Positions 7,842 to 63,545 are shown, counted from the stretch's first letter. The stretch: DNA of 64,000 nucleotides from Synergistales bacterium (GCA_963666205.1 OY762654.1:1024001-1088000), one strand, 5' to 3'. Program-made: numbers and translations. Notes: generated from the sequence alone by a model not told the origin.

Positions 7842-8538
7842 CGGTAAACCGATTTTGGATTTTAGATTTTGGATTTTAGATTAGATCCATTGAGTTTCTC
7901 CGTGGTGAAAAGCTTCTGGTGCTGTTTTTTTCTTTTATCGTGCAAAATAGATCCATCATTTTGCACAGTAGAAAAAAGATTTGAGGGCTTCCTCTGCGAC
8001 CTCTGCGGTAAACCGATTTTAGATTTTGGATTTTAGATTTTGGATTAGATCCATTGAGTTCCTCCGTGGTGAAAGGGTTTGGGTCCTGTTTTTTTCTTTT
8101 ATCGTGCAAAATAGATCCATCATTTTGCACAGTCGACAAAGTGGCCTATTTCTTGATCTCCTAGACCCGCGAAGCGTCCGCCCGTCCCCGGTTTATTCAG
8201 TGGTTTTTGGCGGATCTGCGGTAAAACAGCTTTTGATTTTGACCTGGTTTCCCTCCGTGCTACTCCGTGCCCTCCGTGGTGAAACAGGTTTTTGGGTTTA
8301 CGGTTCTAATCGTGCAAAATAGGTCCATCATTTTGCGCAGCACACCATTGTTTATGTTTTACATCTGCGTTACTCTGCGCAACCTCAGCGCTGAAAGTCC
8401 GCCACTACTTGGGTCTAATGGTTTTATACGATGGTTTACGGCGGATCCTCTGCGGTAAACCGATTTTGGATTTTAGATTTTGGATTTTAGATTTTGGATT
8501 AGATCCATTGAGTTCCTCCGTGGTAAAACAGCTTTTTA
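7842..8538. repeat. Modular intergenic repeat array R1
   Basis: CTCTGCG/CTCCGTG iterons, GATTTTR heptamer runs, hairpin D at 7938, 8102 and 8310, GTCCGCC..GGCGGA stems; internal ~164-bp tandem duplication. Confidence 0.9.
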
Positions 8539-9843
8539 TCATTCAACCATGTTCTTCCTGCGGTAGACCGGCAGTGCCGCCTCCCACATTCCCGGATGCT
8601 GTTTCCACAAAATAATACCCATAGCGACACATACCACACCGCCGCCCGCCAGGGTAAGGGGAGCACCGAACATGGAGGCCAGCCAGCCTGCGTTAAGGCT
8701 TCCAATGGGAGCGATCCCGAGTATGGAAACTATATATAGGCTCATCACCCTGCTCCTCTTGTTATCATCCACAAGGGTCTGGATGAAAGTATTGCATGAA
8801 ACCATGGAGGATACCATGAAAAGTCCAACAAAGACCATGAGGAACATGGACAGTGCCAGGGACCTGGAAAGGGAAAAGAGGGATACGGAAATGCCGAAAA
8901 AGGACATGGAAAAGGCCATGATCTTTCCAAGCCCCACAGGAGATCTTCTCAGGGCCAGACCGATAGACCCGGCAAGGGCTCCTATGCCGCTTGCGGCCAT
9001 CAGAAAACCCAGGGTCTGGGGACCGCCACTGAGTATTTCTCTGGCAAAAACGGGTAAAAGGACGAGATAGGGGATACCGGCAAAACTTATAACCACCAGG
9101 GCTACAATGGTATTTCGAATGGGAGAAAATCCCTTTACATAGACCAGTCCTTCCCTGAGCCCCTCAATGACCCTGCGGGGGGGACCGTCGCGATCTCCCC
9201 TGCATTCTCTAAGTTTCATTATCATAAGAGCGGCAAGGGTGGCAAAATAGCTCAACCCGTTGATAACAAAACATACACCCTCTCCAAATGCCGCGATGGT
9301 AAGCCCTCCCAGTGAGGGACCAAGGAGTCTGGCCACATTGAAAAGGGAAGAATTCAGGGCTATGGCATTACCAAGATCGTCGCTCTTATCAACAAGATGG
9401 ACCACAAAGGCCTGCCGTGCCGGTATTTCAAAGGCATTTACCACACCCAGCAGGGAACTGAGAATAATGATATGCCAGTATTCCACCCGTCCTGACAGGG
9501 TAAGAAAAGCCAGGATAAAAGCATGGACCATACTCAGTCCCTGGCATAAAAATATCACCTTTTTAAGGTCCATCTTCTCAAGGACGACCCCTGCGAACAT
9601 TCCCAGGAAAAAGACCGGGATCTGGCCCACAAAATCCACCGCACCCAGCATGAATGCAGAATCGGTCAATCTGTAGACTAGCCAGCTCATGGCAACTCTC
9701 TGCATCCACAGGCCGCTCAGGGAGACTACCTCTCCCATAAAGAATATCCTGTAGTTTCTATGTTTCATTGCCCGAAGGAGATGATGGGCTCGAACTTTTT
9801 TAAGATTTAAAACATCTGGAGCAAATCGTCCTGACCATGACAT
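8539..9843 (-). CDS. MFS transporter (MFS_3 / EntS-like)
   Basis: 12 hydrophobic segments; NAFEIPARQA, AIALNSSLFNVARLLGP. Confidence 0.9.
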   Translation of the reverse strand: MSWSGRFAPDVLNLKKVRAHHLLRAMKHRNYRIFFMGEVVSLSGLWMQRVAMSWLVYRLTDSAFMLGAVDFVGQIPVFFLGMFAGVVLEKMDLKKVIFLCQGLSMVHAFILAFLTLSGRVEYWHIIILSSLLGVVNAFEIPARQAFVVHLVDKSDDLGNAIALNSSLFNVARLLGPSLGGLTIAAFGEGVCFVINGLSYFATLAALMIMKLRECRGDRDGPPRRVIEGLREGLVYVKGFSPIRNTIVALVVISFAGIPYLVLLPVFAREILSGGPQTLGFLMAASGIGALAGSIGLALRRSPVGLGKIMAFSMSFFGISVSLFSLSRSLALSMFLMVFVGLFMVSSMVSCNTFIQTLVDDNKRSRVMSLYIVSILGIAPIGSLNAGWLASMFGAPLTLAGGGVVCVAMGIILWKQHPGMWEAALPVYRRKNMVE

Positions 9844-9873
9844 CCGGTATACCTATTCCTCTCCCTGTAAAGC

Positions 9874-9909
9874 TGAAGAGGGTTCCGAAACTGTCCGGAA
9901 CCCTCTTCT
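9874..9909 (-). terminator. Putative terminator hairpin
   Basis: GAAGAGGGTTCCG-N-CGGAACCCTCTTC. Confidence 0.6.
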
Positions 9910-9979
9910 GAATTCATTCCTCTGAAGAAAATAAAGACTGGACCGGGCAGATATTCCCCTCAGGATCAGCTGCAGATCT

Positions 9980-20458: not shown

Positions 20459-20720
20459 GAATCGAAAATCTAAAATCCAAAATCCAAAATCGGTTAACCG
20501 CAGAGGGTCCGCCGTAAACCATCGTATAAAACCATTAGACCCAAGTAGTGGCGGACTTTCAGCGCTGAGGTTTCGCAGAGTAACACGCAGGAAGACAAGA
20601 ACCGTAGGGTGCTGCTTTAGCGCACCGAAACGACCAAGGTTGATAGATGTCACGAAATCGTAAATTTGTACCAGGAAGGACTTTCGGATCGGAGGGCACA
20701 GAGGAAAACATAAGACATAA
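20459..20720. repeat. Modular repeat array R2 (opposite polarity to R1)
   Basis: 20470-20585 is the near-identical reverse complement of ~8366-8480; contains GTAG REP 20604-20626 and a degenerate hairpin E. Confidence 0.9.
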
Positions 20721-20805
20721 AAACCGTAGACCTTTTCACCTATATCATGAAATCCCTGCCTTATTCATTGAATAAACATAATGTACATGATAATATTTAA
20801 CCATA

Positions 20806-20833
20806 CTTCAAAAATATCATGATAATTTTGAAG
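20806..20833. promoter_or_regulatory. Palindromic operator upstream of ATPase gene
   Basis: CTTCAAAAATATCA|TGATAATTTTGAAG (1 mismatch) with extra half-sites near 20786 and 20842. Confidence 0.55.
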
Positions 20834-20865: not shown

Positions 20866-22044
20866 ATGATCAAAAGATATATTGCAGATATTATCAGGGA
20901 AGATCTCCAACATAAAATGGTGTTCATAGGCGGCCCAAGACAGGTAGGAAAAACTACCCTCGCAAAAATGATAGGTGAAGATTACCCCTCTTTCACCTAT
21001 CTGAACTGGGATTTCCGCCCCCACAGAGAAGCTCTTGTAAGATCGACACTACCTGCTGAAACAAATCTCCTGATCCTTGACGAGATCCACAAATATCCTG
21101 ATTGGAAATCTCTGATAAAGGGGATCTGGGACACCAGGACAGGCGACGAATCCATTCTGGTAACTGGAAGCTCCAAGCTGGACATTTACAGAAGAGGCGG
21201 GGATTCTCTCCTTGGCAGGTACCACTATTTTCGACTTTATCCTTTGACTCTGAAAGAACTGAATTCTCAAGCTCCCGTAGGCATGGATTTCCCGGATAAA
21301 GCTCCGAAACTTGATCTGGACTTATCGGGGAAAGGATTGGACAAGCTCCTTTTTTTTGGAGGTTTTCCAGAACCTCTGCTTTCGGAAAGCGAAAGGGTAT
21401 TGAAAAGGTGGCAAAGAGAAAGATTTGAAAGGGTCTTCAGAGACGATATCAGGGAAACAGAGAACATAAGATCTCTTGCACAGATAGAGCTTCTGGCAGC
21501 TATGCTTCCATCCAGGGTGACATCACCCTTATCTCTGAATTCTCTGGCTGAAGACCTGGAAACCAGTTCAAACACAGTAAAAAGCTGGATGGATCTTCTT
21601 TGCAGAAATTATTTCACCTTTAAAATACCTCCATATCACAAGCGTCTTGAAAGGGCTCTCAAAAAAAGTTCTAAATACTATCTTTGGGACTGGTCCGAAA
21701 TAAAGGATGAAGGTGCACGTTTTGAAAACCTTATGGCAGTTCATTTGTTGAAATATGCACATTTTATCCAGGACAGCCATGGAATTTCTGTTGAACTGTA
21801 TTACCTCAGGGATACTGCTAAACGGGAAGTGGATTTTCTGCTGACTTGGCAAGACAAACCCTGGATTCTTGTCGAAACCAAGGTTAACCATGGTGATAGT
21901 TTAACCTCTCTGAACTATTTTGCAGATAAGCTTGGAGTTGATGAAAAATATGTAGTATGTCTGAATGATAAAAAAGATTACCTCGACAGGAACTCCGGCG
22001 TAAGGGTAATACCTGCAAGCAGATTTCTAATGTCCCTTGTGTGA
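20866..22044 (+). CDS. AAA_14 ATPase with DUF4143 C-terminal domain
   Basis: GPRQVGKTT Walker A, LILDEIH Walker B, VTGSS, SLLGR, GGFPE, REVDFLL..ILVETK. Confidence 0.9.
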   Translation: MIKRYIADIIREDLQHKMVFIGGPRQVGKTTLAKMIGEDYPSFTYLNWDFRPHREALVRSTLPAETNLLILDEIHKYPDWKSLIKGIWDTRTGDESILVTGSSKLDIYRRGGDSLLGRYHYFRLYPLTLKELNSQAPVGMDFPDKAPKLDLDLSGKGLDKLLFFGGFPEPLLSESERVLKRWQRERFERVFRDDIRETENIRSLAQIELLAAMLPSRVTSPLSLNSLAEDLETSSNTVKSWMDLLCRNYFTFKIPPYHKRLERALKKSSKYYLWDWSEIKDEGARFENLMAVHLLKYAHFIQDSHGISVELYYLRDTAKREVDFLLTWQDKPWILVETKVNHGDSLTSLNYFADKLGVDEKYVVCLNDKKDYLDRNSGVRVIPASRFLMSLV

Positions 22045-22047
22045 TCA

Positions 22048-22929
22048 GTCGTTTCGGTGCGCTAAAGCAGCACCCTACGGTTCTTGTCTTCCTGCGTGTT
22101 ACTCTGCGAAACATTTGCGCTTACAGTCCGCCTTAACGTCTTTGTAAGATGGTTTGCGGCGGATCCTCTGCGGTAAACCGATTTTAGATTTTGGATTTTA
22201 GATTTTGGATTAGATCCATTGAGTTCCTCCGTGGTGAAAGGGTTTTAACGGTTCAGCTTTACGGTTCTTAGGTTTAACTCGTGCAAAATAGTATCACCGT
22301 TTTGCGCAGTAGAAAAAAGATTTGAGGGCTTCCTCTGCGCTCTCTGCGCCCTCTGCGGTAAAATAGCTTTTGATTTTGACCTGGGTTCCCTCCGTGGTGA
22401 AAGGGTTTAACGGTTCAGCTTTACGGGTTTTCATGGCACAAAGCTGCGCTTTCGTGCCTCCACAAAACCTTTATCTCAGTAGCATCTGGTCCGAATGTAC
22501 GAATCTTTCATCTTACTCCTGAAGAGTTACCCCAAGGGTTTATGTCTTCCTCTGCGCTCTCTGCGCCCTCTGCGGTAAAATAGCTTTTGACTTTGACCTG
22601 GGTTTCCCTCCGTGTACCTCCGTGCCCTCCGTGGTGAAAAAGTTTGGGGTGGATGTTATAGTTACTGGTTTTATTGTTTCCATGGCACAAATCTCCGATT
22701 TCGTGCCTCCCCAAAACCTTTATCTCAGTAGCATCTGGTCTGAATGGATGTTGACATGGAACTCAACTTTATCTTACCGGCCCGAAGGTCCGCCCGTCCA
22801 CGGTTTGTTTAGATGGGTTTTGGCGGATTTCCTCTGTGCTCTCTGCGCCCTCTGCGGTAAAACAGCTTTTGACTTTGACCTGGTTTCCCTCCGTGGTACT
22901 CCGTGTCCTCCGTGGTGAAAAGGTTTGGG
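22048..22929. repeat. Modular repeat array R3
   Basis: REP, GTCCGCC stems, heptamers, hairpin D 22279, hairpin E 22435 and 22684, several iteron blocks. Confidence 0.9.
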
Positions 22930-24294
22930 TCAGGATCTCCAATAATCACATACCAGGTCTTCCAGCCTTACCAGGTTAATATCCTCTGATGATTCCAACC
23001 CCTTGAAACCTGACCTGGAGAATATATAAAATACCGTTCTGCTGCAATCCCTTCCGACTACTTTCCGGATCTTGTCAGCCTTACCTGCCAGATCCATGAA
23101 AACCCTTGAATTTGCCGGCTCACGAGTCCATTTACATTCACCAAGCACCAGGGTCTCGCCCTTTACAGCCACTATATCAACCTCATCCTCACCATCCCAC
23201 CACCTGCCCATACCTTCAGGGTTTATCCAATCTTTCAGAACCTGCCTGCAGATCTTCTCCCAGGTAAAGGAAGTATGCATAGAAAGAGTGGATGAGATCT
23301 TTTCCTGGACATCAGACCCTCTCTCCCTATAGATAAGTTCCTGATCGTCCAGCAGATACCTGAAATAAAAACGCAGATACTCATCCTCGATGAAGTACAG
23401 GGGGATCTTTTTAGGTCTTTTCAGGGAGAAGGGAAGTTCCTTGCGGATCAGTCCAAGCTCAAGGAGATTCCTCAGGTAAGTTGAAATGTTCTGATGGGGA
23501 ATACCAGTGATCTGTGCTATTTCGGATGCCCTGGTCCTGCCCTTTGCAATTGTCCTCAGGATCGAAAAATATGAAGTTGGATCCTTTTTGAACTCCTCCA
23601 TAACCAGAAAACGGCCCTCTTCCACTAGAAATTCACCAGGGCTCAGCATCGATTCCTTCAGTGCATTATTAAAAGAACCGTGTCCAGACATCTTCTTGAG
23701 ATAAAGAGGAATTCCCCCAACTGCAGAATATGTTTTTACCTGGTCTTCCATGTTCAGGTCAGGTAAAAATTTTCTTGCCTGCAGAAATCCCATAGGATCG
23801 ATACGGTATTGCCCTGTTCTTCTGCCATATATGGGACTGCTCTCTGCCAGGGTGATTCTTTCCATCATGCCGATAAAGGAACCGCAAAGCACCATCATCA
23901 CCGGCAGTTTACTGAATACCTGATCCCACCATCTCTGAAAAAGGGAAAGAAAGGAATCATCCTTGATGGGAATATACTGAAATTCGTCCCATACGATAAC
24001 CAGTTTTTCTCTGGATAATTTGATCATCTTTTCCAGAAGGGAGAACATCTCATCCCATTTAGTGACTTCCAGAGACAAAGGCAGTTCTGCTTTTTCTTTA
24101 AGGGGAATAGAGAACCTGTTGATCAGCTGCTGCGGTTCAGACATATCAGCAGTCAGGAAAAGAGCTCCGGGAAATGTGTTCTCAAGGAGGAAAGTCTTCC
24201 CTACCCTTCTCCTGCCATATATAACGACCAGCTCTGCATTTTCAGACCTGAACTTTTTTTCAAGAAATTCTTTCTCCTGTATCCGATCTATCAT
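22930..24294 (-). CDS. Archaeal-type ATPase (ATPase_2) + wHTH + DUF234 PD-(D/E)XK-like domain
   Basis: YGRRRVGKT, WDEFQY, CGS, PIYGRRT, GGIPLYL, GRWW..EVDIVA..GECKW; ATG at 24294 with GGGGGTG RBS preferred over TTG 24381. Confidence 0.88.
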   Translation of the reverse strand: MIDRIQEKEFLEKKFRSENAELVVIYGRRRVGKTFLLENTFPGALFLTADMSEPQQLINRFSIPLKEKAELPLSLEVTKWDEMFSLLEKMIKLSREKLVIVWDEFQYIPIKDDSFLSLFQRWWDQVFSKLPVMMVLCGSFIGMMERITLAESSPIYGRRTGQYRIDPMGFLQARKFLPDLNMEDQVKTYSAVGGIPLYLKKMSGHGSFNNALKESMLSPGEFLVEEGRFLVMEEFKKDPTSYFSILRTIAKGRTRASEIAQITGIPHQNISTYLRNLLELGLIRKELPFSLKRPKKIPLYFIEDEYLRFYFRYLLDDQELIYRERGSDVQEKISSTLSMHTSFTWEKICRQVLKDWINPEGMGRWWDGEDEVDIVAVKGETLVLGECKWTREPANSRVFMDLAGKADKIRKVVGRDCSRTVFYIFSRSGFKGLESSEDINLVRLEDLVCDYWRS

Positions 24295-24314
24295 ATGCGC
24301 ACCCCCAAAATCAA

Positions 24315-24357
24315 AAAATACAGAAGATATATTCTGCAAATATATCTTCTGTATTTT
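24315..24357. promoter_or_regulatory. Perfect 19-bp inverted repeat (putative operator) upstream of ATPase
   Basis: AAAATACAGAAGATATATT-CTGCA-AATATATCTTCTGTATTTT. Confidence 0.6.
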
Positions 24358-24388
24358 AAGGGCTGCTCTTATAAATTGCAAATAGTCC

Positions 24389-24770
24389 TTTCGGTGCGCT
24401 CTCTGCGGTAAACCAGCTTTTGCCTTAGGTTTTATGTTTTCCTCAGATATTCCTCCGTACCCTCCGCAGTAAAAGTGTCTACTGTTTTCAGGTTTTATGT
24501 TTCCCTCTGTGCCCTCCAGGTCTAATCTTTACCATGGCACAAAGCTGCGCTTTCGTGCCTCCACAAAACCTTAAAGTTAAGATGTAATCTATCTGAACTG
24601 TCAAAAAAGGAATAAATCCTGAATATTATGTCAAAGAAGTCTTGTTTTCCTCATGTTTTACCTCTGCGGTACTCTGCGTGACCCCTGCGCCCTCTGCGGT
24701 AAAACAGGTTTTGACTTTGACCTGGGTTTCCCTCCGTGGTGAAAGGGTTTTAACGGTTCAGCTTTACGGG
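24389..24770. repeat. Modular repeat array R4
   Basis: Iteron blocks, hairpin E 24536-24559, shared A-B linker. Confidence 0.85.
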
Positions 24771-26939: not shown

Positions 26940-27110
26940 CCAGAACAATTTTACCGCAGAGGACGCAGAGAACGCAGAGGAAAGCGTAACCCTGAGTGAA
27001 CCATTTTTCTTTAACCTGCTGCGTATATATTTCCGAGTTCATCCGCTCAGACCTTATCCAACTTAGACTGAGGTTAATGGATGTCACATAATCATAGATT
27101 TGTGCCAGGA
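26940..27110. repeat. Modular repeat array R5
   Basis: TTTTACCGCAGAGGACGCAGAGAACGCAGAGG + ~90-100 bp element + hairpin E (reverse). Confidence 0.85.
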
Positions 27111-27149
27111 GAAACTCTAGCCATAAATTCTGGCTGGTTACTGGATTTA

Positions 27150-27527
27150 CTACAGCCCGTTGGCAAATCGGGTTATACCATCCTTAAGTTTGACTACATT
27201 GAAATTAATAAGCAATCCTAGTTTCTTGCCGCTCAGTTTCAAGTAAGAAAGGATCTGAGCCTTATGTATATCCGTTATTTTTTCAACGGATTTAAGTTCA
27301 ATAATAATCTCGTCCTCTACAACCAGATCCAGACGATAACCCAAGTCTATTTTGACTTCATCATAAATCACAGGAAGAACTTTCTGGGACTCAACTTTAA
27401 AGCCTCTTTTATTTAATTCATAACAAAGACAAGCTTCATATGAACTTTCGAGAAGACCCGGACCTAAAGCAGAATGTACTTTAACAGCGCTATCAATAAT
27501 TTCTTTGCTTATCTCATTTATCTCCAT
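27150..27527 (-). CDS. GxxExxY protein (PD-(D/E)XK nuclease superfamily, PDDEXK_3)
   Basis: LGPGLLESSYE, YRLDLVVEDEIIIELKSV, AQILSYLK, GLLINF; 125 aa. Confidence 0.92.
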   Translation of the reverse strand: MEINEISKEIIDSAVKVHSALGPGLLESSYEACLCYELNKRGFKVESQKVLPVIYDEVKIDLGYRLDLVVEDEIIIELKSVEKITDIHKAQILSYLKLSGKKLGLLINFNVVKLKDGITRFANGL

Positions 27528-27599
27528 AGGTCTGAATACCCCCCAATTCAGTCATGACAAAACCCTAACCATTCTACAACAAAATTGTTTTTGGTTTTG

Positions 27600-28105
27600 C
27601 CTCTAAGTCGTGCAAAACCGAGTCTGGTTTTGCGCAGTAGGAAAAAGATTTGCGGGTTTCCTCTGCGCTCTCTGCGCCCTCTGCGGTAAAACAGGTTTGA
27701 GGGTAGATTTTATAGTTTCCGTTTTTATTGTTTCCATGGCATAAATCTACGATTTCATGCCATACATCAACTTTGAGGTAAAGTAGTATCTAGTCCGAAC
27801 ATTCTGAACCCAGAATTGGGAAAATCCCATATTCCGCAATGTTTTAAGCTTTTCCTCCGCGGTACTCTGCGCTCCCTCTGTGTCCTCTGCGGTAAAACAG
27901 GTTTGAGGGTAGATTTTATAGTTTCCGTTTTTATTGTTTTCATGGCACAAATCTACGATTTCGAGCCTCCCCAAAACCTTTATCTTCGTAGGATATGGTC
28001 TGTCCGGACAAATATCACATGTTATTCATGAACAGTTATACCAAGGTTTTACGCCTTCCTCCGTGGTAAAAGGGTTATAACGGTTCAGCTTCACGGGTTT
28101 TACTC
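27600..28105. repeat. Modular repeat array R6
   Basis: Hairpin D 27608, hairpin E 27738 and 27944, iterons; ~79-bp tandem duplication at ~27679 and ~27884. Confidence 0.9.
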
Positions 28106-28917: not shown

Positions 28918-29525
28918 TATCGGTGCGCTGGAGCGCACCCTGCAAAACTTTATCTTACCGGGCCGAAGGTCCGCCCGTCCTCGATTTGTTTAGTGGGTTT
29001 TGGCGGCTTTCCTCCGTGGTAGAAAGGTTTACGGTTCTAAGGTTCCAATCGTGCAAAATAGTATCACCGTTTTGCGCAGCATGTATTATAACAAGTGGTT
29101 ATGACTTTCCTCCGTGCTACTCCGTGACCTCCGTGGTAGATAGGTTTTAGCGTTTGGGCTTTACGGGTTTTCATGGCACAAATCTACGATTTCGTGCCTC
29201 CCCAAAACCTTTATCTTCGTAGGATATGGTCTGTCCGGACAAATATCGGATGTTATTCCTGTTCAGGTATACCAAGGTTTTACGCCTTCCTCCGTGTCCT
29301 CCGTGGTGAAAGGGTTATAACGGTTCAGCTTTATGGGTTTCCATGGCACAAATCTTCGATTTCGTGCCTCTCAAAAACCTCAATCTTAGTAGTATTGGAT
29401 CTTGCAAAACATAACCAAAGATTAGTCGCAGCATATTTATACAAAAGGGGTTAAGCTTTCCTCTGCGCTCTCTGCGCCCTCTGCGGTAAAACAGGTTTTG
29501 ACTCTGATTTTGACTTTGGTTTTGA
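28918..29525. repeat. Modular repeat array R7
   Basis: REP 28922-28943, GTCCGCC stem, hairpin D 29049, hairpin E 29175 and 29345, iterons. Confidence 0.9.
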
Positions 29526-30304: not shown

Positions 30305-30460
30305 ACATGTTTAACCGCAGAGGACGCAGAGAAAACCGGGAGGAAAGCATAAAAACATCGCTATGTAGATTTTATTAATCTCCTGTTTTATATATACATG
30401 ACCTGATCCTACTAAGATAAAGGTTGATGTATGGCATCAAATCATCGATTTGTGCCAGGA
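30305..30460. repeat. Modular repeat array R8
   Basis: Iteron + 89-bp element + hairpin E; similar to 34059-34200. Confidence 0.8.
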
Positions 30461-30659
30461 AGCAAATATTTACAGTGGGCATCGAAGAAAATAACCTGGT
30501 TTTTTACCTGGAATATTTTAAATTGACTTAATTTTTATGTTCCATCATGTGATACCAGCGGCAGAAAAAGGTTCTCTTTTCTGCCGGCAGTCAACCTTAA
30601 AAAACAAAGAAATATTGTAATAAAACCGTAGAGTCAAAAACATTGCCCAAATTAAGTTT

Positions 30660-31490
30660 CAGTACTTGGGTTCCCTCTGCGCTCTCTGCGCCCTCTGCGG
30701 TTAGCTTAGGGTTAATAGGGGTAAAAGGTTTACGGTTCAGGTTTACGGGACCAATCGTGCAAAATAGTTCCATCATTTTGCGCAGCATAACAAGGAGTGT
30801 TAAGGGCCGAATGTCCGGCCAACCCGGCTTTAAGTTTTTTAGGAAGATCTTTGACGGAGGTTTTTGGCGGGTTTCCTCTGCGGTAAAAGAAAGATACTGA
30901 ATTTGTTTTTGACTTTGGTTTTATTGGTTAAGAGGTTTTCCTCTGTGACCTCTAGTTCGAAAGCACTACCTGGCACAAATCTACGATTTGGTGCCATACA
31001 TCAACCTCAGTCTAAGTAGCATAAGATCTGAGTGGACGTAACATCGGAATAAACACGCAGTATATGGATAAAATGGTTTGACGGGTTTCCTCAGGGTCTA
31101 CCTCTGCGAAACTCTGCGTAACCTCAGCGTCCTCTGCGGTAAAACAGCTTTTGATTTTGACCTGGTTTCCCTCCGTGTCCTCCGTGGTAGATAGGTTTTA
31201 GCGTTTTGGCTTTACGGGTTCCCATGGCACAAATCTCCGATTTTGTGCCTCCGGAAAAACTTGTTCACCAGGTTTTGTAAGTTTCAGGTTCTCGTTCTTA
31301 ATCGTGAAAAATCTAGTCTGATTTTTCGCAGCATGTTTCTTAAATCATTTGGTCTCGTTTTCCTCTGCGCTTCCTCTGCGCTCTCTGCGCCCTCTGCGGT
31401 AAAATAGCTTTTGACTTTGACCTGGTTTCCCCTCCTGCAAAGTTATCAGTCTTGCATACATACGGTTAAAATCAAGGTCTGACCCCATTC
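30660..31490. repeat. Modular repeat array R9
   Basis: Hairpin D 30755 and 31302, hairpin E 30972 and 31226, iterons; ends in a 34-bp element 31456-31489. Confidence 0.9.
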
Positions 31491-31827
31491 TTTTTTTATA
31501 CTGATAATTCTTTTCATAAATTTCACAGGACCTTTTTCCCACTTTTTTCGGGTCAGGATCTGTATTTAATCTTGACCCTATGGTAAAACTGAATAAAAGT
31601 TCAAATATTTAATATTCCATACTTTTAAGAATATACATTATAATGTTTTTCTCTTGACTTTCCTTATTTAACTGCACATAATGAAATCATTGAGAGTATC
31701 ACGAGTTAGAGAACAAACCCTTCCCCTGTAAAACTATTACAATTAAATCTGAAGAGTTAGACAGTTGAAGTCAAAATTCAATGACCTTTTCTTTCTTACT
31801 TAGAGTAATTACACTTAAACGTCGGGA

Positions 31828-34044
31828 GTGTCTAACGTGCATTTATGTTTTCGTCGTGGCATGGTATTTGCCATAGCCTTGTTCTTGTTACTGTTTTTAT
31901 CCATACCATCCTTTGCAGCAGGTGAAGGTGTATCAGGAGTTACCGGACCATCCTCTGCCCCATCGGGGTCAACCGGCAGTGATGCCGGACCTGGAGGCAT
32001 GGAAATAACCGGTCCAACCATAGACGGTTCCATATTCACCCCCGACAACCAGGGTCCCGGCCAGATCGAGTTCCTGGACATGACAGGTTCCCAGGTACAG
32101 GACGCAACAGGACAGGTCCAGGCACCGGGCCAGCAGATGGGCGTTGATGACAGTAACAAAGACTACGTCTCGGGCGCCCTTCCGTCCGTTATCACCGATA
32201 AGCTTCCCCGTTTCGGATATAACTTCTTCAGCAGACCCTCTACCGCCTTTGCACCCGTAAGGAATGTTCCGGTGGGACCCGATTACGTGGTCGGACCCGG
32301 TGACACCGTCCGCATCGACATCTGGGGGCTTGAAGAGGGCCATTACACCGTACCCGTTGACCGAAACGGTAACCTTTCCCTTCCCAGGGCAGGCGTTGTA
32401 GGTGTTACAGGCCTCACCTTCGACCAGGTGAAAATGGCCGTCACAAGTGCCTATTCCCGCTACTACAGCAATTTCCAGATAAATATAACCATGGGTCAGC
32501 TGAGGACCATAACCGTCTACGTTGTTGGCCAGACCAACCGGCCAGGCGCCTATACCCTTTCATCCATGTCCACAGTGATCAATGCCCTTATCGCATCTGG
32601 AGGTCCCAGCTTTTCCGGAAGCCTGAGGAACATCCAGGTCAAACGCAACGAACGGATAGTGTCCCGGTTCGACGCCTATGAACTTCTCCTCCAGGGCAGC
32701 AAGAAAAAAGACATCCGCCTCATGGACGGCGACGTGCTCTTCATCCCCACCGTGGGTCCCCTGGTGGGCATTACCGGCGACATAAAGAACCCTGCCTACT
32801 ACGAACTCAATGGGCAGGCAAGGATCTCCGATCTTGTGGAGATGGCGGGAGGGTTCACCAACCGCTACTTCAAGGGCCGGGTCCAGGTTGACCGCACCAT
32901 GGGCAACGAATACCGCACATCCTTCGAGAACGACCTCGCAGGGCTCAAGGAGAATCCTGCAAAGAACATACCCCTGGAGAACGGCGACCTCGTCAAGATC
33001 TACTCCGTTTCCGTCCAGGAATCCAAGATATACCTTTCCGGTGCCGTCGCCCGTCCGGGCCAGTACTCCATCCAGCTGGGCAGAACCAGGGTCGGCGATG
33101 TACTTCGCCGCGCAGGAGGCCTTCTCTACATGGCATCCAATGAGGGCGAGCTCACCCGGGTAAAGGTCACACAGGCCGGCCCCGAAACAAGCCGTTTCCG
33201 CTTCGACATATCAAAGGCCATGGCCGGGGATCCCCAGAGCAACATGATCCTCGATGTCAACGACTACATAACCATCCGCACCGTACCCGACTGGACCCTC
33301 TACCGTACCGTAAGGGTACAGGGAGAGGTGAAGTATCCCGGCGTATACACCATCCAGAAGGGCGAAAGGCTCACAGACCTCATCGAGCTTGCTGGAGGAT
33401 ACACGGATGAGTCTTTCCTTCCCGGTGCGACCTTCACTCGTGCCAGCGTACAGCGCAAGCAGCAGCAAAGGATCGACGAAATGATCGACCGCCTGGAGAA
33501 ACAGCTTTACGGCGCATCCGTTGAAGGTACAGCAACAGCCCTCACAGAAGGGGATGCCCGCATGACCCAGATGGAGACCCAGCAGCGCCAGCGATTCCTC
33601 GACAGGCTCAGGGAAACAAAGGGAACGGGCCGCATAGTGGTGAAACTGCCCGAGAACCCCAGGATGCTCAAGGGAACACCCTATGATATAGAACTCGACC
33701 AGGGAGATACCCTGGTTATTCCTAAAAGGCCCCAGACCGTACAGGTGGTGGGTTCCGTCTATAACCCCATGGCCTTCGTGTACCGTCCCGACCAGCCCTT
33801 CACATACTACGTGAAGCAGGCCGGCGGATATTCATACAATGCCGATACAAAGAGGATCTACATCATCAAGGCCGATGGAACGGCAACGAGGTCCTTTGTG
33901 AACAAGAAACCTGTGACCATCGAAGATGGAGACAGCGTGATCGTGCCGGAGAAGATCGATGTCAAGGGCAAGCTGAGGGATACCAGGGACATCGTGGACA
34001 TCGTGTACAAGGTCGCCGTCGGCGCCGCCGTGTTACTCGACTAA
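31828..34044 (+). CDS. Polysaccharide export protein with multiple SLBB domains (Wza/KpsD-like)
   Basis: RFGYNFF, DYVVGPGD Poly_export motif, repeated V.GEV..PG.Y SLBB units. Confidence 0.88.
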   Translation: MSNVHLCFRRGMVFAIALFLLLFLSIPSFAAGEGVSGVTGPSSAPSGSTGSDAGPGGMEITGPTIDGSIFTPDNQGPGQIEFLDMTGSQVQDATGQVQAPGQQMGVDDSNKDYVSGALPSVITDKLPRFGYNFFSRPSTAFAPVRNVPVGPDYVVGPGDTVRIDIWGLEEGHYTVPVDRNGNLSLPRAGVVGVTGLTFDQVKMAVTSAYSRYYSNFQINITMGQLRTITVYVVGQTNRPGAYTLSSMSTVINALIASGGPSFSGSLRNIQVKRNERIVSRFDAYELLLQGSKKKDIRLMDGDVLFIPTVGPLVGITGDIKNPAYYELNGQARISDLVEMAGGFTNRYFKGRVQVDRTMGNEYRTSFENDLAGLKENPAKNIPLENGDLVKIYSVSVQESKIYLSGAVARPGQYSIQLGRTRVGDVLRRAGGLLYMASNEGELTRVKVTQAGPETSRFRFDISKAMAGDPQSNMILDVNDYITIRTVPDWTLYRTVRVQGEVKYPGVYTIQKGERLTDLIELAGGYTDESFLPGATFTRASVQRKQQQRIDEMIDRLEKQLYGASVEGTATALTEGDARMTQMETQQRQRFLDRLRETKGTGRIVVKLPENPRMLKGTPYDIELDQGDTLVIPKRPQTVQVVGSVYNPMAFVYRPDQPFTYYVKQAGGYSYNADTKRIYIIKADGTATRSFVNKKPVTIEDGDSVIVPEKIDVKGKLRDTRDIVDIVYKVAVGAAVLLD

Positions 34045-34455
34045 AACCAAGAGCTGTTTTACCGCAGAGGTCGCAGAGAGCGCAGAGGAAACCGAAAGGC
34101 AGGCATAAAAATTTCGCTGTGTAGGTTTTTATTAATCTCCTGTTTTATACATGCATGACTTGATCCTACTAAGATAAAGGTTGATGTACTTTTGTGCCAT
34201 GGGCATAAAGAAAATCATCAATTCTAAGAGCAAAACATGTAGTTACCTCAGAGGACGCATCGGAAAATTATAAAGAATGCAATGTTGTTTACTCTTTTGA
34301 CCGTTTATTATTCTAGAAGGTTTTGGCGGATTTCATGTAGACAGGAAGTTCTAGGGGGCTAATCGTGAAAAATCTAGTCTGATTTTTCGCAGTAATACAG
34401 ATTTTACAGGTTTAACGGTTTCCTCTGCGCTCTCTGCGACCTCTGCGGTTAGCTA
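34045..34455. repeat. Modular repeat array R10 (internal polarity switch)
   Basis: ACCGCAGAGG iterons at ~34060, then hairpin D' 34363 and CCTCTGCG iterons 34422-34451. Confidence 0.85.
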
Positions 34456-34498
34456 AGGGGTTTAGGTTTCACGGTCGAGAAGGGGTTTTATTCAATTT

Positions 34499-34876
34499 AT
34501 GGAAATTAATGAAATTAGCAAAACAATTATCGACAGTGCTTTCCAAGTTCACAAAGCATTAGGACCAGGTCTCCTCGAAAGTGCATATGAAGCCTGCCTC
34601 TGCTACGAACTCAAGAAAAGAGGATTTACAGTAGAATCCCAGAAAGTTCTCCCGATAATTTACGATGGACAACAAATTGATGTTGGTTATCGCCTGGATC
34701 TTCTTGTACAAGATCAGGTCATAGTAGAACTCAAATCTGTTGAACATATAAATGAGGTACATAAAGCACAGATACTCTCGTATCTCAAACTTGGTAATAA
34801 GAAACTCGGACTACTTATCAATTTCAACGTAGCCAAAATCAAGGACGGGATAACCCGTATCGTCAACGGTTTGTAG
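34499..34876 (+). CDS. GxxExxY protein (PD-(D/E)XK nuclease superfamily), second copy
   Basis: LGPGLLESAYE, YRLDLLVQDQVIVELKSV; about 98/125 identical to 27150-27527 by manual count. Confidence 0.92.
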   Translation: MEINEISKTIIDSAFQVHKALGPGLLESAYEACLCYELKKRGFTVESQKVLPIIYDGQQIDVGYRLDLLVQDQVIVELKSVEHINEVHKAQILSYLKLGNKKLGLLINFNVAKIKDGITRIVNGL

Positions 34877-35024
34877 GTTTTTTCGTCTTATAATATCAAG
34901 GTTTTGATTTACAAAGAAAATTGTTAATTAGGTTTTATCTAGTTATGCATATTTGAGGGTTTAGTCGGTCAAAATGGGTTGATCATTTTGACCAGTAGAG
35001 ATTTTTATACAAAAAAGATGTTTT

Positions 35025-35185
35025 TAGGTTTTCTCTGCGCTCTCTGCGGTTAGACAGGATTTAGACTTTAGGGTTGCCGGTTTTATTCGTGAAAAATCTA
35101 GTCTGATTTTTCGCAGTAATACAGATTTTACAGGTTTAACGGTTCCCTCTGCGCTCTCTGCGACCTCTGCGGTTAAACAGTATTT
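35025..35185. repeat. Modular repeat array R11
   Basis: 35087-35175 is a direct repeat of 34363-34451. Confidence 0.9.
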
Positions 35186-35212
35186 GATTTTAATAGATTT
35201 TGAGGGGTAAAC

Positions 35213-45109: not shown

Positions 45110-46118
45110 TGACCTGCTCCCAGAAAAGTGGTCCAGTTGAAATGCGAGAAAGTTGCTAAAATTGGGCCCCTCGAGAAGGAATATTCATGAAGAAGAGATT
45201 TTGGAGAGGAATAGATCGTCTCCATATTGAAAGAACACAAAACAGGAATACCCGGTAAAGAGCTGGCAAGATACGGATTCAGTGAAAGACGGACGTGCGG
45301 GCTACTGAAAATACACTGAACGACATTGAGATACAACAGCAGGAAAGACAGGCAGGATGGACAGGAAAGGACAAGGTTTAAAGAACTCCCCTAGTATGGA
45401 AACGCGATCACTACATAAGGCTTCATACCCTGATTTACAGGTAAGGTTATGAGATAAACCATAAGAAGGGTGACCGGCTGTACTGTGAGGAAGATCTCAG
45501 GTTCAGGAAGAGAAGGAAGAAACGGTTGGCAAGACCACGATTATCAGAACCACTCGTTCTGGATAGAGCCAACCAGAGATGGTCGTTGGATTTTGTTTCC
45601 CATAACACAGCCATAGGGAGCAGGATCAGGATATTGACAGTAATAGATACATTTACGAGAAAATATCTTGCACTGGAAATGGAAACATACATAAGGAGAA
45701 GCCGTGTTTCCACGGTATTGGACCGGATAAGTATGAAGAGAGGTTATCCTGAAGAGATCCTTACCGACAAGGGACCAGAATTCACAAGTAAAGTAATGGA
45801 TGCCTGGGCTTATATCAGAGGAATAACCCACAGGTTTATAGAACCTGAGAAACCGTCACAGAACGGATATAGAGAGTTTCAACGGTAAGTTACGTTATGA
45901 ATGTCTAAACGAACAATGGTTTTTTAACCTTAAAGATACCATGAATATCATTGGCGAATGGAAGAAGACCTATAACGCGGAAAGACGTGACAACTTATTT
46001 GATAATATGACACCGTCGGAATTTGCTAAGAAAATAACGGTAAAAGAAGAAGCCCTCTGTGCTTAAAGATGTCAGGAAACTCGCATAGAAACTGGACCTA
46101 ATGCAGGAGGACAGGTCA
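45110..46118 (+). mobile_element. Degenerate IS3-family (IS407-like) element
   Basis: Imperfect terminal IRs TGACCTGCTCCC..GGTCCAGTT and AACTGGACC..GGACAGGTCA; frameshifted OrfA from 45188 (MKKRF..IVSILKEH) and OrfB relic (NQRWSLDFV, LTVIDTFTR, TDKGPEF, P.QNGY). Confidence 0.85.
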
Positions 46119-51013: not shown

Positions 51014-51155
51014 GTCTGAGAGCGACAAGAAGACGGCCATAAGGGATAAAAAGGGGATTCACAACTCGAGTGCGTCAGAAGAACTCGAGTCCATACCGAT
51101 CCAGGAAACGAAGAGAATCTCTTTCGAGAAGGTGGGTTCTTCCATTTCAGTAAGG

Positions 51156-52253: not shown

Positions 52254-52268
52254 ACAGCACCTTAATAA

Positions 52269-53270
52269 AATGGGGTCAGACCTTGATTTTAACCGTATGT
52301 ATTCAGTATTATGTAAATATTTTAGCCCTGCGAAAACCATGAAACCATAAAATCCAACCATCACCCTTTCTCACCACGGAGGTCACGGAGGAAGTTCGGA
52401 GGAAACACTGGAGCAAGACCAAAAGACATATTTTACCGCAGGGACTCTCCGAGTCCGCGCAGAGGCCGCAGAGAGGAGCACGCAGAGGGGATCGTTATCC
52501 TTTAACCCAGGACATCTGAGCAATCTGGAGCCATTGCTCATCTCGCAATAATAAATTTCCAGGCAAAATATAGATATTTCCCCTGTTCATTGTTTTATTG
52601 CCTTGAAAAATATACTTCATATTTTTCATTATTGTCCTAGGCTTTCAAATGCAAGGAGATGAAAAAAAATTTAGAAACAGGAGGCTTTGGCAATCTTTCC
52701 CGTGAATTTATCCATTACCTGGAAAATGATTTCATCATTTTCCTAATGTCCCGGGTTTTCAAGAAAACCTATTTACAAAGGAAAACTACAGGGACCATTA
52801 CACCCAAACCATAAATCCTGGGTGGTTAATGAACCCATGACATCTTCCAAGGGCATTTCGATGCGTTGAAGTCCGCCGCAAATCCGTCAAAGATCTTCCA
52901 AAAACTTAAAGCAGGATGGCCGGACATTCTGCCCTTTCATATAAAACCGTCAGGCCCGAGTAGTGGCGGACTTTCAGCGCGGGTCTAGAAGATCAAGAAA
53001 TAGGCCACTTTGTCGGCTGCGAAAAATAAGACTAGATTTTTCACGAATAAAACACCGGGAAAAGTTTAAGATGCGCTGAAGCACATCCTATGGATTGCTG
53101 TCGCGTAGGAAGGCACAAACCTTGAGGTAACTGTTCAGGAGTAACATCCTATTTTCGTCCGGACAGACTATCGGTGCGCTGAAGCACACCCTATGACCAA
53201 GGTTTTGGGGAATAAACATAAAAATATTATTGAGCGTTTTGGTGCGCTGAAGCGGCACCCTATGGAGGGA
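52269..53270. repeat. Modular repeat array R12 (partly degenerate)
   Basis: 34-bp element 52269-52302, iterons 52370-52490, GTCCGCC stem, hairpin D' 53017, three REP-like palindromes 53070-53263. Confidence 0.8.
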
Positions 53271-56664: not shown

Positions 56665-57000
56665 ACAGGTCAAAAACAAAATCAAAGTCAAGATATGTTT
56701 TACCGCAGAGGACGCAGAGTAACGCAGAGGAAATCAAACATGAGGGAACCCATGCTGCGAAAAATCAGACTCGATTTTTCACGAATAACCCCCGAATCAT
56801 AGCCCATAAAACTGTTTACCACGGAGGGACACGGAGGAAGGCATAAAGAATGGTGTGCTGCGCAAAATGATGGACCTATTTTGCACGATTAGAACCGTAA
56901 ACCTTGTAACCCTGTCTAACCGCAGAGGGCGCAGAGGAAAAGAAAATCGCACATTAACAATAGAATGATGCGCTGAAGCACATCCTATGGAAAACTAACA
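56665..57000. repeat. Modular repeat array R13
   Basis: Iterons, hairpin D' 56755, hairpin D 56858, REP-like 56967-56988. Confidence 0.88.
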
Positions 57001-58094: not shown

Positions 58095-58555
58095 AATCAG
58101 GATCAAGACATATTTTACCGCAGAGGAAACCGAAAGACTGAGAACCGTAAACCAAAAAACCTGTTTCACCACGGAGGACACGGAGGAGGATCTGAGGAAA
58201 ACCAGATCAAAATCAAAACACGTTTTACCGCAGAGGGCGCAGAGAGCGCAAAGGAAAGCATGAACCCTTGGTTAGAACAGACTGTTTCTGAATTCTGAAT
58301 GAGGTATGTTCGGATGATATGCTACTTTACCGATAGGTTGTTGGATGTCACGAAATCGGAGATTTGTGCCATGGAAACCCGTAAAGCCCAAACGCTAAAA
58401 CCCTTTCACCACGGAGGACACGGAGGTACACGGAGGAGACCGTTAAACCAATAAATCCTTGTGTTACTGCGCAAAATGATGGACCTATTTTGCACGATTA
58501 GAACCGTAAACCGTTTAACCCTGTCTAACTGCAGAAGGCGTAGGGGACAAAAACC
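58095..58555. repeat. Modular repeat array R14
   Basis: Iterons, 92-bp element + hairpin E 58347, hairpin D 58467. Confidence 0.9.
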
Positions 58556-61161: not shown

Positions 61162-61910
61162 TTCGATTTTAGATTGGGGATTTTGGATTAAAAGATAGAA
61201 AACAACACCCAGAGCTTAAAAACTGTTTTACCGCAGAGAACGCAGAGGAAATCCTCAAATCTTTTTTTACTGCACAAAATGATGCACCAGTTTTGCACGA
61301 TTAGAACCGTAAACCTTTTAACCCTGTCTAACCGCAGAGGGCGCAGAGAGCGCAGAGGGAAGCATGAACCCTTGGTTAGAACAGACTGTTTCTGAATTCT
61401 GAATGAGGTATGTTCGGATGATATGCTACTTTACCGATAGGTTGTTGGATGTCACGAAATCGGAGATTTGTGCCAGGAGTCTAACTTCTAACCTGGAGGA
61501 CACAGAGGAAAACATAAAACCTAAGTCAAAATCTATTTTACTGCAGAGGATCCGCCGTAAACCATCGTATAAAACCATTAGACCCAAGTAGTGGCGGACT
61601 TTCAGCGCAGAGGAAAGCATGAACCCTTGGATTTGAAAATCTACTGCGCAAAACGGTGATACTATTTTGCTCGAGTTAAACCTAAGAACCGTAAAGCTGA
61701 ACTGTTTAAACCTTTCACCACGGAGGGCACGGAGTGCCACGGAGGTAAACCAGGTCAAAATCAAAAGCTGTTTTACCGCAGAGGGCGCAGAGGAAGGCGT
61801 AAGCCCTTGGGGTAACTGTTCAGGGATAACATCCCATATACATCCGGACAGATCATATCCTACTATGATAAAGGTTTTGGGGAGGCACAAAATCGGAGAT
61901 TTGTGACATG
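61162..61910. repeat. Modular repeat array R15
   Basis: Hairpin D 61270 and 61644, hairpin E 61451 and 61884, GTCCGCC stem, iterons; segments shared with R1, R2, R3, R7 and R14. Confidence 0.9.
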
Positions 61911-62043
61911 CTAAAGACTGGACCGGGATGTGGGGGAGAAAAACAATGACCGCCTGGAATTTCATGTTGAAGAATGTCACGTTAGGGTACACAATATAAG
62001 ATGATCTGCCTGAAAATACTATTTTTGAACATTTCATATAGAG

Positions 62044-63447
62044 GTGACTGATTTGAATAACCTGTACACCCTTATTCTTGCGGGGGGAAGCGGGACCCGG
62101 CTGTGGCCCCTTTCCCGTGAGGAACTGCCCAAGCAGTTCCTGTATCTTACCAATCACTCTACCCTCCTTCAGAATACAGTAACAAGAACCCTCGAATTTA
62201 CAGATTCCAACAAGCTTTTTGTCGTGGCTGGCCAGAACTGGAGAGCCCTGGTGGACCACCAGGTCAGACAGGCCGGCAATTTTAAAGAAAGTATAGTAAT
62301 TACCGAGCCATTGGGCCGGAATACGGGACCAGCCATCGCACTGGGTATTTCCTACCTCCTCGACAGGGCTGGAGCCAAGAAAGAAGACTCTGTCCTGATC
62401 TGTCCAAGCGACCATATCATCAATGATGTACCAGCATTTTCTTCAGCTGTGGGAAATGCTGTCAAGGCAAGCGAGAAGGGCTATATTTCCACCTTCGGCA
62501 TTGTGCCTACAGGACCGGAAACGGGCTTTGGATACCTTCATGCCGGGGACATCAACGGTGAAGGTTACTCCGAACTTGAGGAGTTCGTGGAAAAACCGGA
62601 TCTCGAAAGGGCAAAGAGCTACTTGGAGGACGGGAATTATTACTGGAACAGCGGCATGTTCGTCTTCCGGATCGGCGACATGATGGATGCCCTGAAAAAA
62701 CATATGCCCCAGCTGGGTGAAGCGGCGGAAAGGGGTTACGAGTTTCTTCTTGGTTCCTTCGAGGATATGCCCTCCATTTCCATAGATTATGGCGTTATGG
62801 AAAAACTTGAGAAGACTGCCATGGTTCCCCTGGATGCGGGATGGTCCGATGTGGGTTCCTGGGATGCGGTATATGACATTTCTGAAAAGGAGACTTCGGG
62901 CAATGCTGTTCATGGCGATGCCATTCTCAAGGACAGCACCAACAATCTGATGTTTTCCAGGGAAAGGCTGCTGGTGGGTGTGGATCTCCATGACATGCTT
63001 GTTGTGGATACACCAGATGCCCTTTTTGTAGCCCCCAAGGGAAGTTCCCAGAAGGTTCGGGATGTGGTAAAGGAACTGAGGTCAATGGGACGGAAGGAAG
63101 CAACAGAAGCACCTGAAAGCGCAAGGCCCTGGGGGACATACAAGGTCCTTACAGAGGCAGATAGGTACAAGATCAAGAAAATAGCAATTGAACCCGGCAA
63201 GAGATTGAGCCTGCAGTATCACCATCATAGAAGTGAACACTGGGTGGTTGTAAGGGGTACTGCCCTGGTCACCCTGGATGATAATGAAGTTTTTGTCCAT
63301 GAGGGAGAGAGCATCTTTGTTCCCAAGGACAGTCATCACAGGCTGGCAAACCCCGGCAAGATCCCCCTGGAGATAATCGAGGTCCAGAACGGGGAATACC
63401 TGGGCGAGGATGACATTGTCCGCATTCAGGACGATTACAAGCGCTGA
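62044..63447 (+). CDS. manC: Mannose-1-phosphate guanylyltransferase / mannose-6-phosphate isomerase
   Basis: ILAGGSGTRLWPLSR, WNSGMF, SIDYGVME, RPWG, LSLQYHHHRSEHW. Confidence 0.93.
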   Translation: MTDLNNLYTLILAGGSGTRLWPLSREELPKQFLYLTNHSTLLQNTVTRTLEFTDSNKLFVVAGQNWRALVDHQVRQAGNFKESIVITEPLGRNTGPAIALGISYLLDRAGAKKEDSVLICPSDHIINDVPAFSSAVGNAVKASEKGYISTFGIVPTGPETGFGYLHAGDINGEGYSELEEFVEKPDLERAKSYLEDGNYYWNSGMFVFRIGDMMDALKKHMPQLGEAAERGYEFLLGSFEDMPSISIDYGVMEKLEKTAMVPLDAGWSDVGSWDAVYDISEKETSGNAVHGDAILKDSTNNLMFSRERLLVGVDLHDMLVVDTPDALFVAPKGSSQKVRDVVKELRSMGRKEATEAPESARPWGTYKVLTEADRYKIKKIAIEPGKRLSLQYHHHRSEHWVVVRGTALVTLDDNEVFVHEGESIFVPKDSHHRLANPGKIPLEIIEVQNGEYLGEDDIVRIQDDYKR

Positions 63448-63449
63448 AG

Positions 63450-63545
63450 AAAAACCAGGTCAAAGTCAGAACCTTTTTCACCACGGAGTATTACAGAAGA
63501 AAACATGGGGTCTAATCGAAAATCGCAAATCTAAAATCTAAAATT
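63450..63545. repeat. Short modular array R16
   Basis: A-B linker + CACCACGGAG + AAATCTA heptamers right after manC stop. Confidence 0.7.

Follow-up and report, generated by a model that had tools for sequence, protein, structure and literature searches.

The closest studied analogue of the system considered here is that of the Ssn (GIY-YIG) single-strand nucleases and the NTS/SRM repeats, that is, the dRS3 of the Neisseria intergenic mosaic elements (Chenal et al. 2025, PMC11893778). In the available part of that report, SsnA of Neisseria is a small nuclease framed by its oriented NTS repeats, and these modulate transformation; 42% of the Ssn homologues are flanked by repeats on both sides, hundreds of oriented orphan repeats lie beside surface-protein genes, and the authors note a resemblance to insertion sequences (PMC11893778). 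Here we describe a stretch of 64,000 nucleotides from a Synergistales bacterium (GCA_963666205.1 OY762654.1:1024001-1088000), referred to in full length as the window, which belongs to a genome of a single 2.95-Mb contig with 44% GC and carries two genes of the GxxExxY family among dense intergenic repeat arrays. As in the Ssn/NTS system, so far as the accessible sections of its description go, a small single-domain (predicted) nuclease is framed by its own repeats, oriented orphan repeats lie by surface genes, and repeat variants pair with nuclease variants. Unlike Ssn, GxxExxY has a PD-(D/E)XK and not a GIY-YIG fold, and its nuclease role is predicted only; its repeat is a tandem heptamer array instead of a single hairpin, and the orphan copies are gathered in one island, not spread genome-wide. 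We consider it probable that the arrays are mainly accumulated, gene-less ends of GxxExxY nuclease cassettes.

Intergenic tandem heptamers also make up the short tandemly repeated repetitive (STRR) sequences of cyanobacteria. The intergenic heptameric simple sequence repeats of Xanthomonas and Nostoc often stand as convergent inverted pairs, with 70-75 pairs in Xanthomonas; unlike those described below, they are composed of other words and are linked to no gene family in the available part of that work (PMC4692102). PDDEXK_3, in turn, is listed as 'function unknown, multiple transfers' (PMC3424549), and our protein search for GxxExxY returned at least 8000 candidates, all of them matching; the matches listed, from bacterial and archaeal sources, have 62-78% identity to the query. 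A profile of 20 proteins gave 595 confirmed loci in species genomes, the best 80 of which were analysed; they come from Planctomycetota, Bacteroidota, Verrucomicrobiota, Acidobacteriota, Chloroflexota, cyanobacteria, Geobacteraceae, Zetaproteobacteria, Methanosarcinales and others. The typical cassette has the layout TTCAC-(CGCAGAG-N)x3, GxxExxY open reading frame (ORF), (CTCTGCG-N)x3-GTGAA. Tandem Repeats Finder (TRF) reported 283 short-period repeats, of which 109 lie no more than 400 bp from the gene; their units resemble CGCAGAG on its upstream side and CTCTGCG on its downstream side. A heptamer pattern found a reversed array upstream in 47 of the 80 loci, a forward array downstream in 50 and both in 39, the last to be set beside the 42% of Ssn homologues; arrays in the wrong orientation occurred in 14/80 and 13/80 loci. 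Away from the gene, 276,369 bp held 35 arrays, a background of 0.032 per 250 bp. In a motif-free test, 42 of 77 GxxExxY genes had inverted flanks (score >=16), as against 3 of 108 further ORFs taken from these loci. An enrichment of CTCYGYG iterons beside GxxExxY genes across genomes, put forward as a check in the first-pass annotation, is thus strongly positive.

The arm word varies by taxon (CTTTGCG, CTCTGTG, CTCCGCG, CTTCGCG and others), and an identical word is common to both arms in 37 of 39 cassettes; when the pairing was shuffled 1000 times, the number averaged 12.2 and never exceeded 22. Paralogues within single genomes bear different words. In two Flavobacterium genomes the protein sub-clusters, three clusters only, track the arm word, with 48-89% identity within and 28-49% between them. 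At one Flavobacterium operon junction, 7 of 12 loci hold the cassette, 3 a gene-less arm-arm hairpin, 1 a small GIY-YIG-like ORF and 1 other repeats. These comparisons show that the arms and the GxxExxY gene are one inherited unit that comes and goes, and that gene-less derivatives exist. Literature searches gave no description of the arms, and the heptamer-armed GxxExxY cassette is apparently undescribed. The GIY-YIG-like ORF (L117, a Flavobacterium genome with the same junction as L061) is ~95 aa long and was recognised by eye only; it may encode an Ssn-type nuclease.

The GxxExxY gene has the same direction as its upstream neighbour in 65 of 76 loci and as its downstream neighbour in 57 of 75, with a median gap of 80 nt between the upstream stop and its start codon. 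This co-directionality is in keeping with an element acting at the RNA level, in the manner of 23S rRNA intervening sequences (IVS): read-through from the host operon would allow the arms to pair as a stem of ~25-35 bp cut by RNase III, the arrays would serve RNA processing or stability in the polysaccharide operons, and their spread would owe nothing to the nuclease fold. The arms are long enough to be an RNase III substrate, and the available part of the IVS literature provides a precedent, in which an S23p ORF is accompanied by upstream tandem heptamers and by terminal inverted repeats forming a 28-bp stem, with excision by RNase III (PMC4990558); both elements thus place a small ORF between terminal inverted repeats, with adjacent tandem heptamers, inside a host transcript. 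Synergistota four-helix-bundle genes have arms of the same build as well: in 25 other loci of the phylum they show tandem 6-8-nt words that differ from locus to locus, with a score >=15 in 14 of the 25. Unlike the IVS, which are found in helix 25 or 45 of 23S rRNA, GxxExxY cassettes lie outside rRNA and encode a different protein family. The arms of the window are mostly tandem and point in the same direction, and therefore cannot form pairs among themselves; array polarity fails to track gene direction, and the movement of cassettes and the invariant catalytic residues would be left unaccounted for. We regard an RNA-level origin as unlikely.

Both window ORFs are clear members of the family (PF13366, E 6e-45 and 1e-43; TIGR04256, 158 and 153 bits against a cut-off of 35). 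The structure model of GxxExxY (pLDDT 94.7) is a compact nuclease fold, the best PDB neighbours of which, all weak, are the PD-(D/E)XK proteins Cas4, lambda exonuclease and Hjc (best E 1.2e-3); a PDB sequence search gave no match. D67, E77, K79 and E27 are invariant in 20 aligned homologues. Cassette 1 is closed by inverted arms of 35 nt (26949-26983 / 27657-27691) that are 94% complementary. Cassette 2 has outer inverted arms of 58 nt (34037-34094 / 35140-35197, 86%), a perfect inner pair of 34 nt (34061-34094 / 34416-34449) and a 92-nt direct repeat flanking the gene (34360-34451 / 35084-35175, 98%); its 1.16 kb fill the junction, starting at the wza stop codon (34044) and stopping 16 nt short of the wzz start (35213). 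Hairpins of types D and E, defined below, lie between arm and gene in these cassettes, cassette 1 holding both types.

Arms also stand 40-50 nt upstream of several start codons, namely those of YjbH, wzz and GxxExxY-2, each with three direct heptamers phased at 9-10 bp, as would suit host regulatory iterons to which a transcription factor controlling exopolysaccharide genes binds. The same arms nevertheless frame GxxExxY genes in unrelated host operons across phyla (methionine, purine, transport and others), several arm words coexist in one genome, and the scattered copies in this genome adjoin ordinary metabolic genes. A regulatory role as the origin of the arrays appears most improbable to us.

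The arrays are composed of a few modules: A, (CTCTGCG-N2)n-GTWAA; B, (CTCCGTG-N2-4)n-GTRAA; C, (GATTTTR)n; D, a 30-31 nt hairpin TCGTGMAAA..TTTKCRCAG; E, a bulged hairpin GGCAC-AAATC-N3-GATTT-N-GTGCC; F, GTCCGCC..GGCGGA stems; and G, a GTAG-type repetitive extragenic palindromic (REP) element. Judged by their sequence, modules A and B are right-arm-type ends of GxxExxY cassettes. The first-pass annotation had counted about 16 such non-coding arrays, and tandem-repeat and pattern searches recovered the modules at the places it gave, in 15 intergenic regions of the window and in one more at window-equivalent 69150-69560, 5.4 kb past the window end. The modules are nearly restricted to one 62-kb island of the genome. 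The doublet CTCTGCG-N2-CTCTGCG has 32 of its 33 genome copies in the window, for which an even spread would give 0.7, and CTCCGTG-N2-4-CTCCGTG has 17 of 18; the single word CTCTGCG is not over-represented genome-wide (314 copies). Strict patterns of D and E occur 14 and 8 times in the window and 18 and 8 times in the genome. With nhmmer models built from these strict copies, 17 of 26 genome matches of D fall in the locus, 16 of them in the window, as do 19 of 22 matches of E, at ~15 places, which bears out the earlier copy numbers of 16 and about 15. When the region was compared with the genome by BLAST, 482 of ~580 non-self matches fell inside 1.0-1.1 Mb.

The arrays are chains of a 160-290-bp super-unit in the order A, C or linker, B, D or E, tail, then A again, with higher-order tandem periods of 164 bp at 7842-8140 and of 217 and 282 bp at 22332-22831. 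Such periods, together with the raised contig depth over the arrays that repeats give and with the duplicated tandem arms seen in other taxa (L111, L112, L063), could be explained by a neutral local satellite, in which unequal crossing-over and gene conversion spread a super-unit of ~160-290 bp, no dedicated enzyme being involved, and the cassettes are only a partial source of sequence. The module families nonetheless recur in ~40 short patches dispersed over the rest of the genome, and the sister species has them at a second locus too, so that a transposition-like spread is needed. The hairpin stems are, moreover, maintained by compensatory changes: among the 34 distinct copies of D that the two species provide, 22 have C-G and 10 have A-T at pair 4 of the 9-bp stem. 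A satellite with no dedicated enzyme is in our view very unlikely. A tie between the scattered copies and polysaccharide loci was considered and rejected, because most of the genes next to 9 of the patches are ordinary ones of metabolism or transport. A sigma-54 promoter, an intrinsic terminator, a Chi-like site and a CsrA sponge were considered by eye for E, D, A and B and dropped, as spacing or strand logic did not fit and CTCTGCG is not over-represented in the genome.

With an arm pattern of one to six heptamers followed by GTDRV, 54 arms were found between 7.9 and 69.5 kb. To the left of the low-GC glycan cluster (7.9-35.2 kb) 32 are on the plus and 6 on the minus strand; to its right (52.4-69.5 kb) 15 are on the minus and 1 on the plus strand. 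The single polarity per block claimed earlier therefore holds for most arms, but inverted units break it on the left at 20494, 26950, 30311 and 34058. Polarity is independent of gene direction, with minus-strand genes beside plus arrays on the left and beside minus arrays on the right. It is worth noting that the two GxxExxY genes are not, as had been stated, the sole short genes lying in the arrays: a 193-aa pilin and a 185-aa Synerg-CTERM protein are also encoded within them. The Synerg-CTERM domain marks the genome as one of Synergistota.

Some of the modules belong to other systems. Module G is a true REP, with ~12 genome copies, five of them in the island, and copies flank a RAYT gene at 2.458 Mb (2458047-2458601, a 184-aa frame). 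The possibility that a known REP family with its cognate enzyme elsewhere explains the arrays fits this module only. Besides the RAYT, the genome has two other Y1-type genes, all outside the locus; a BLAST search against the genome found none of A, B, D and E in the flanks of these two, and the RAYT is flanked by G. The GxxExxY system is like REP sequences, bacterial interspersed mosaic elements (BIMEs) and RAYT (REPINs) in that a gene is flanked by its own repeats and orphan copies form intergenic mosaics; it is unlike them in that A, B, D and E flank no Y1 gene, the arms are direct heptamer arrays instead of single palindromes, and the candidate enzyme is not HUH/Y1. Module C occurs at ~20 genome places, and an inverted pair of it frames the only four-helix-bundle gene of the genome (TIGR02436 / 23S_rRNA_IVP), between HlyD and AcrB genes (L023 3999-4851, genome 1513901-1514753). 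The third unrelated component is a 31-bp terminal repeat with 15 genome copies, 13 of them perfect, whose master copy is a 1.9-kb element with a 332-aa Y1_Tnp-like gene (genome 1555575-1557458). Its two inverted solo copies in the window (Table 1) stand on either side of wza and the entire low-GC glycan cluster, with the 'inner' side of each turned towards the arrays.

The sister species (G001) has a syntenic island with 31 A doublets. The island genes of the two species are 85-93% identical, and the YjbH gene adjacent to cassette 1 is 90.4% identical; cassette 1 itself is ~99% identical, showing at the sequence level that it was exchanged or converted between the species as one unit. A block around the DUF4143 gene (20691-22084) is likewise 97.9% identical between neighbours of 88-93%, which suggests a recent exchange or conversion between species too. 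The species differ in the pilin region, in genes of the central glycan cluster and in module order throughout, which shows rapid module turnover, and the DUF234 ATPase gene, placed exactly between two arms, is absent from the syntenic site in the sister species. The second GxxExxY gene of the sister species is not in the island but at the junction of gpsA with a ferredoxin gene (L025 5669-6639), and is framed by iteron arms (word CTTTGCG) and D-like hairpins; at the same site in the present genome (2457914-2458789) the RAYT gene with its REPs is found instead. The gpsA-ferredoxin junction is a shared landing place for small nuclease genes.

These differences bear on the integron-like but integrase-free system envisaged in the first-pass annotation, in which GxxExxY would be a site-specific recombinase acting at the arms to insert, excise and reshuffle island genes. 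An inverted repeat of ~175 bp containing arms surrounds the DUF4143 gene (20460-20537 pairs with 22134-22211 at 87%, and 20550-20634 with 22048-22132 at 94%), which makes it one non-GxxExxY gene inside inverted arms, as cargo would be; the DUF234 gene is an insertion or deletion exactly between two arms, the 98% direct repeat around GxxExxY-2 is what a Campbell-type insertion would leave, and module order differs in the sister species. Single genes separated by imperfect repeats with bulged hairpins, in an order that varies between relatives, also recall integron cassettes and attC sites. Unlike integrons, however, the locus has no IntI or other tyrosine recombinase (none of the 6 genome matches to PF00589 is within 1.02-1.10 Mb), cassette orientation is not uniform, and in place of single attC sites there are long composite repeats. 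The terminal GTTAGAC or GTTAAAC of some arms resembles GTTRRRY; an inverse core to pair with it was not found, and genes point both ways. Strand joining is not known for the PD-(D/E)XK fold family, the high-identity DUF4143 block stops short of the arms at 20494 and 22166, and in the 14 of 80 loci whose flanks were inspected the arms close directly on the GxxExxY ORF, leaving no space for a second gene. Homologous recombination between dense repeats would account equally well for the insertions and deletions. In the strain and expression comparison, which rests on assembled contigs from DNA and RNA runs, depth is raised over the arrays and joints occur at repeats in DNA and RNA runs alike, as is expected of assembly at repeats. 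Gene gain and loss against a sister genome, which had been suggested as a check, are indeed observed with break-points in the arrays, but do not discriminate between the readings because arrays fill nearly every intergenic gap. We judge a recombinase of this kind quite unlikely.

Based on the above data, we return to GxxExxY cassettes as the probable main source of the arrays and propose how these would have formed. The cassette is a unit of ~0.45-1.2 kb lodged in operon junctions, with a PD-(D/E)XK-fold ORF of ~125 aa between inverted arms, each made of about three tandem 7-nt words (CTYNGYG, period 8-10) and ending in GTDAA. In this genus the ends have multiplied by local amplification, to ~50 arms vs 2 genes, are mixed with the three unrelated repeats (the REP, the (GATTTTR)n arms of the four-helix-bundle cassette and the 31-bp element end) and occupy every junction of one accessory/exopolysaccharide island in head-to-tail stacks. 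GxxExxY would act as the nuclease, recognising the arms at the DNA level, perhaps in a single-stranded or extruded state, and their spread would be due to it; the dense, homologous and polar arrays would predispose the island to recombination, gene gain and gene loss. That GxxExxY recognises the arms and drives their spread we infer by analogy with RAYT/REP and Ssn/NTS. The association of arms and gene across phyla, the co-varying arms of a cassette and the gene-less hairpin derivatives at the same sites are shown by the counts given above. Among the 41 genomes of the order searched, PF13366 is restricted to genus g1, and so are the dense arrays, in keeping with the proposal. The scale, the confinement to one polysaccharide island and the mirror polarity of its two halves are specific to the window.

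Several observations weigh against this proposal. Most window arms are tandem, same-direction ends (A, B, A, B) and not inverted pairs, a layout that no step we can name would yield, and a six-frame search with hidden Markov models found no decayed GxxExxY coding remnants in the arrays, only the two intact genes, so that a simple 'dead cassette' origin is not established. The mirror polarity is unexplained, since the island is in mid-replichore and array polarity does not follow gene direction; replication polarity was rejected as its cause, cumulative skew having its extremes at 0.07 and 1.71 Mb. At the junctions compared with the sister species, neither a target-site duplication nor a clean empty site could be defined for the window cassettes, because the wza-wzz modules are rearranged there and the RAYT occupies the gpsA-ferredoxin site here. 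As regards a MITE or an insertion sequence, inverted ends and gene-less arm-arm hairpins are present, no duplication could be defined, and of DDE transposases none was found, only an rve fragment. RNA-library contigs (X18) touch the arrays at 22244-22363 and 30875-31154 but do not amount to evidence of transcription. In a genome from another genus of the family (G002, 97% complete) the modules are present with PF13366 not detected; arms can therefore persist without the gene, unless it lies in the unassembled part. Lastly, the heptamer pattern behind the 80-locus counts was composed post hoc from TRF output on the same loci, and these loci, being the top-scoring 80 of 595 and including many Flavobacterium, are neither an independent nor a random sample. 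In G002, modules a, d and b with a linker are found at a contig end (L006 1480-1858), and two more doublets lie within 50 bp of contig ends; the repeats thus break assemblies.

The coordinates of the window features are collected in Table 1. The central glycan cluster (35213-52253) has 30-37% GC, against the genome mean of 44%, and encodes Wzz, a priming transferase, three GT4, two TupA-like ATP-grasp proteins, a flippase and a UbiA-type protein; that the sister species has other genes in this place is typical of a variable polysaccharide cassette. The window had been said to lack integrases, RAYT and intact transposases; this agrees with the absence of PF00589 and PF01797 matches from the locus, but an rve integrase-core fragment is present. 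Its DNA is 74% similar to genome 2369330-2369756 and forms a GC spike within the low-GC cluster; it is probably an insertion-sequence remnant. An Rfam scan of the window gave zero matches to any family, rRNA included, and a tRNA scan found no tRNAs.

Table 1. Repeat arrays, cassettes and associated genes of the window (positions counted from its first nucleotide).
Feature	Position	Strand	Remark
Array 1: A, C, B, D, F in tandem	7835..8528	+	with 164-bp higher-order repeat
DUF4143 unit, left inverted-repeat arm	20460..20634	-	C, A, F, A, REP-like, all reversed
AAA_14-DUF4143 ATPase gene	20866..22044	+	inside ~175-bp inverted repeat containing arms
Array 3	22048..22929	+	DUF4143 unit right arm, then three A-linker-B-(D or E)-tail super-units
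ATPase_2-DUF234 gene	22930..24381	-	directly between B arm and A arm
Array 4 (A, E, A, B)	24401..24770	+	
GxxExxY cassette 1	26949..27691	-	gene at 27150-27527
Array 6 (E, A, E, B)	27692..28101	+	
Array 7 (F, B, D, B, E, B, E, A)	28946..29512	+	
Array 8	30311..31496	+	gene-less inverted arm pair (30311-30331 -, 30675-30704 +), then A, E, A, B, E, D, A, 31-mer last
31-bp terminal repeat of Y1-transposase-like element, solo copy	31456..31486	-	inverted partner 52272-52302
GxxExxY cassette 2, wza-wzz junction	34037..35197	+	gene at 34499-34876
rve integrase-core fragment (120 aa)	45526..45888	+	inside low-GC glycan cluster
Array 11: 31-mer, B, A, F, D, REP (module G) copies	52267..53167	-	polarity reversed
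Array 12 (A, D, B, D, A, REP)	56673..56991	-	
Array 13 (A, B, A, E, B, D)	58114..58549	-	
Array 14 (A, D, A, E, F, D, B, A, E)	61227..61910	-	
Array 15 (B arm + degenerate C repeats)	63477..63545	-	

GxxExxY is among the commonest prokaryotic proteins without known function, and inverted arrays of phased heptamers provide the family with a conserved DNA signature. The orphan arms around the polysaccharide cluster, some 50 with mostly uniform polarity, give the enzyme a defined candidate substrate and offer a natural setting in which to study it. If GxxExxY reads the arms, it would form a nuclease-plus-repeat system alongside RAYT/REP and Ssn/NTS, it could be a source of new sequence-specific nucleases, and the gathering of such genes and repeats in variable surface loci would be explained. 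A further proposal, which we hold to be doubtful, is that GxxExxY is a site-specific nuclease reading its own heptamer arrays on one DNA strand, in single-stranded form or extruded as a hairpin, and that in this genus the arrays were co-opted as polar control points enclosing and subdividing the surface-polysaccharide island, at which DNA, whether resident or incoming, would be cut or recombined module by module. Were this true, it would amount to a nuclease-guided, integrase-free exchange of surface genes and to a second, independent invention of the role that Ssn/NTS has in Neisseria.

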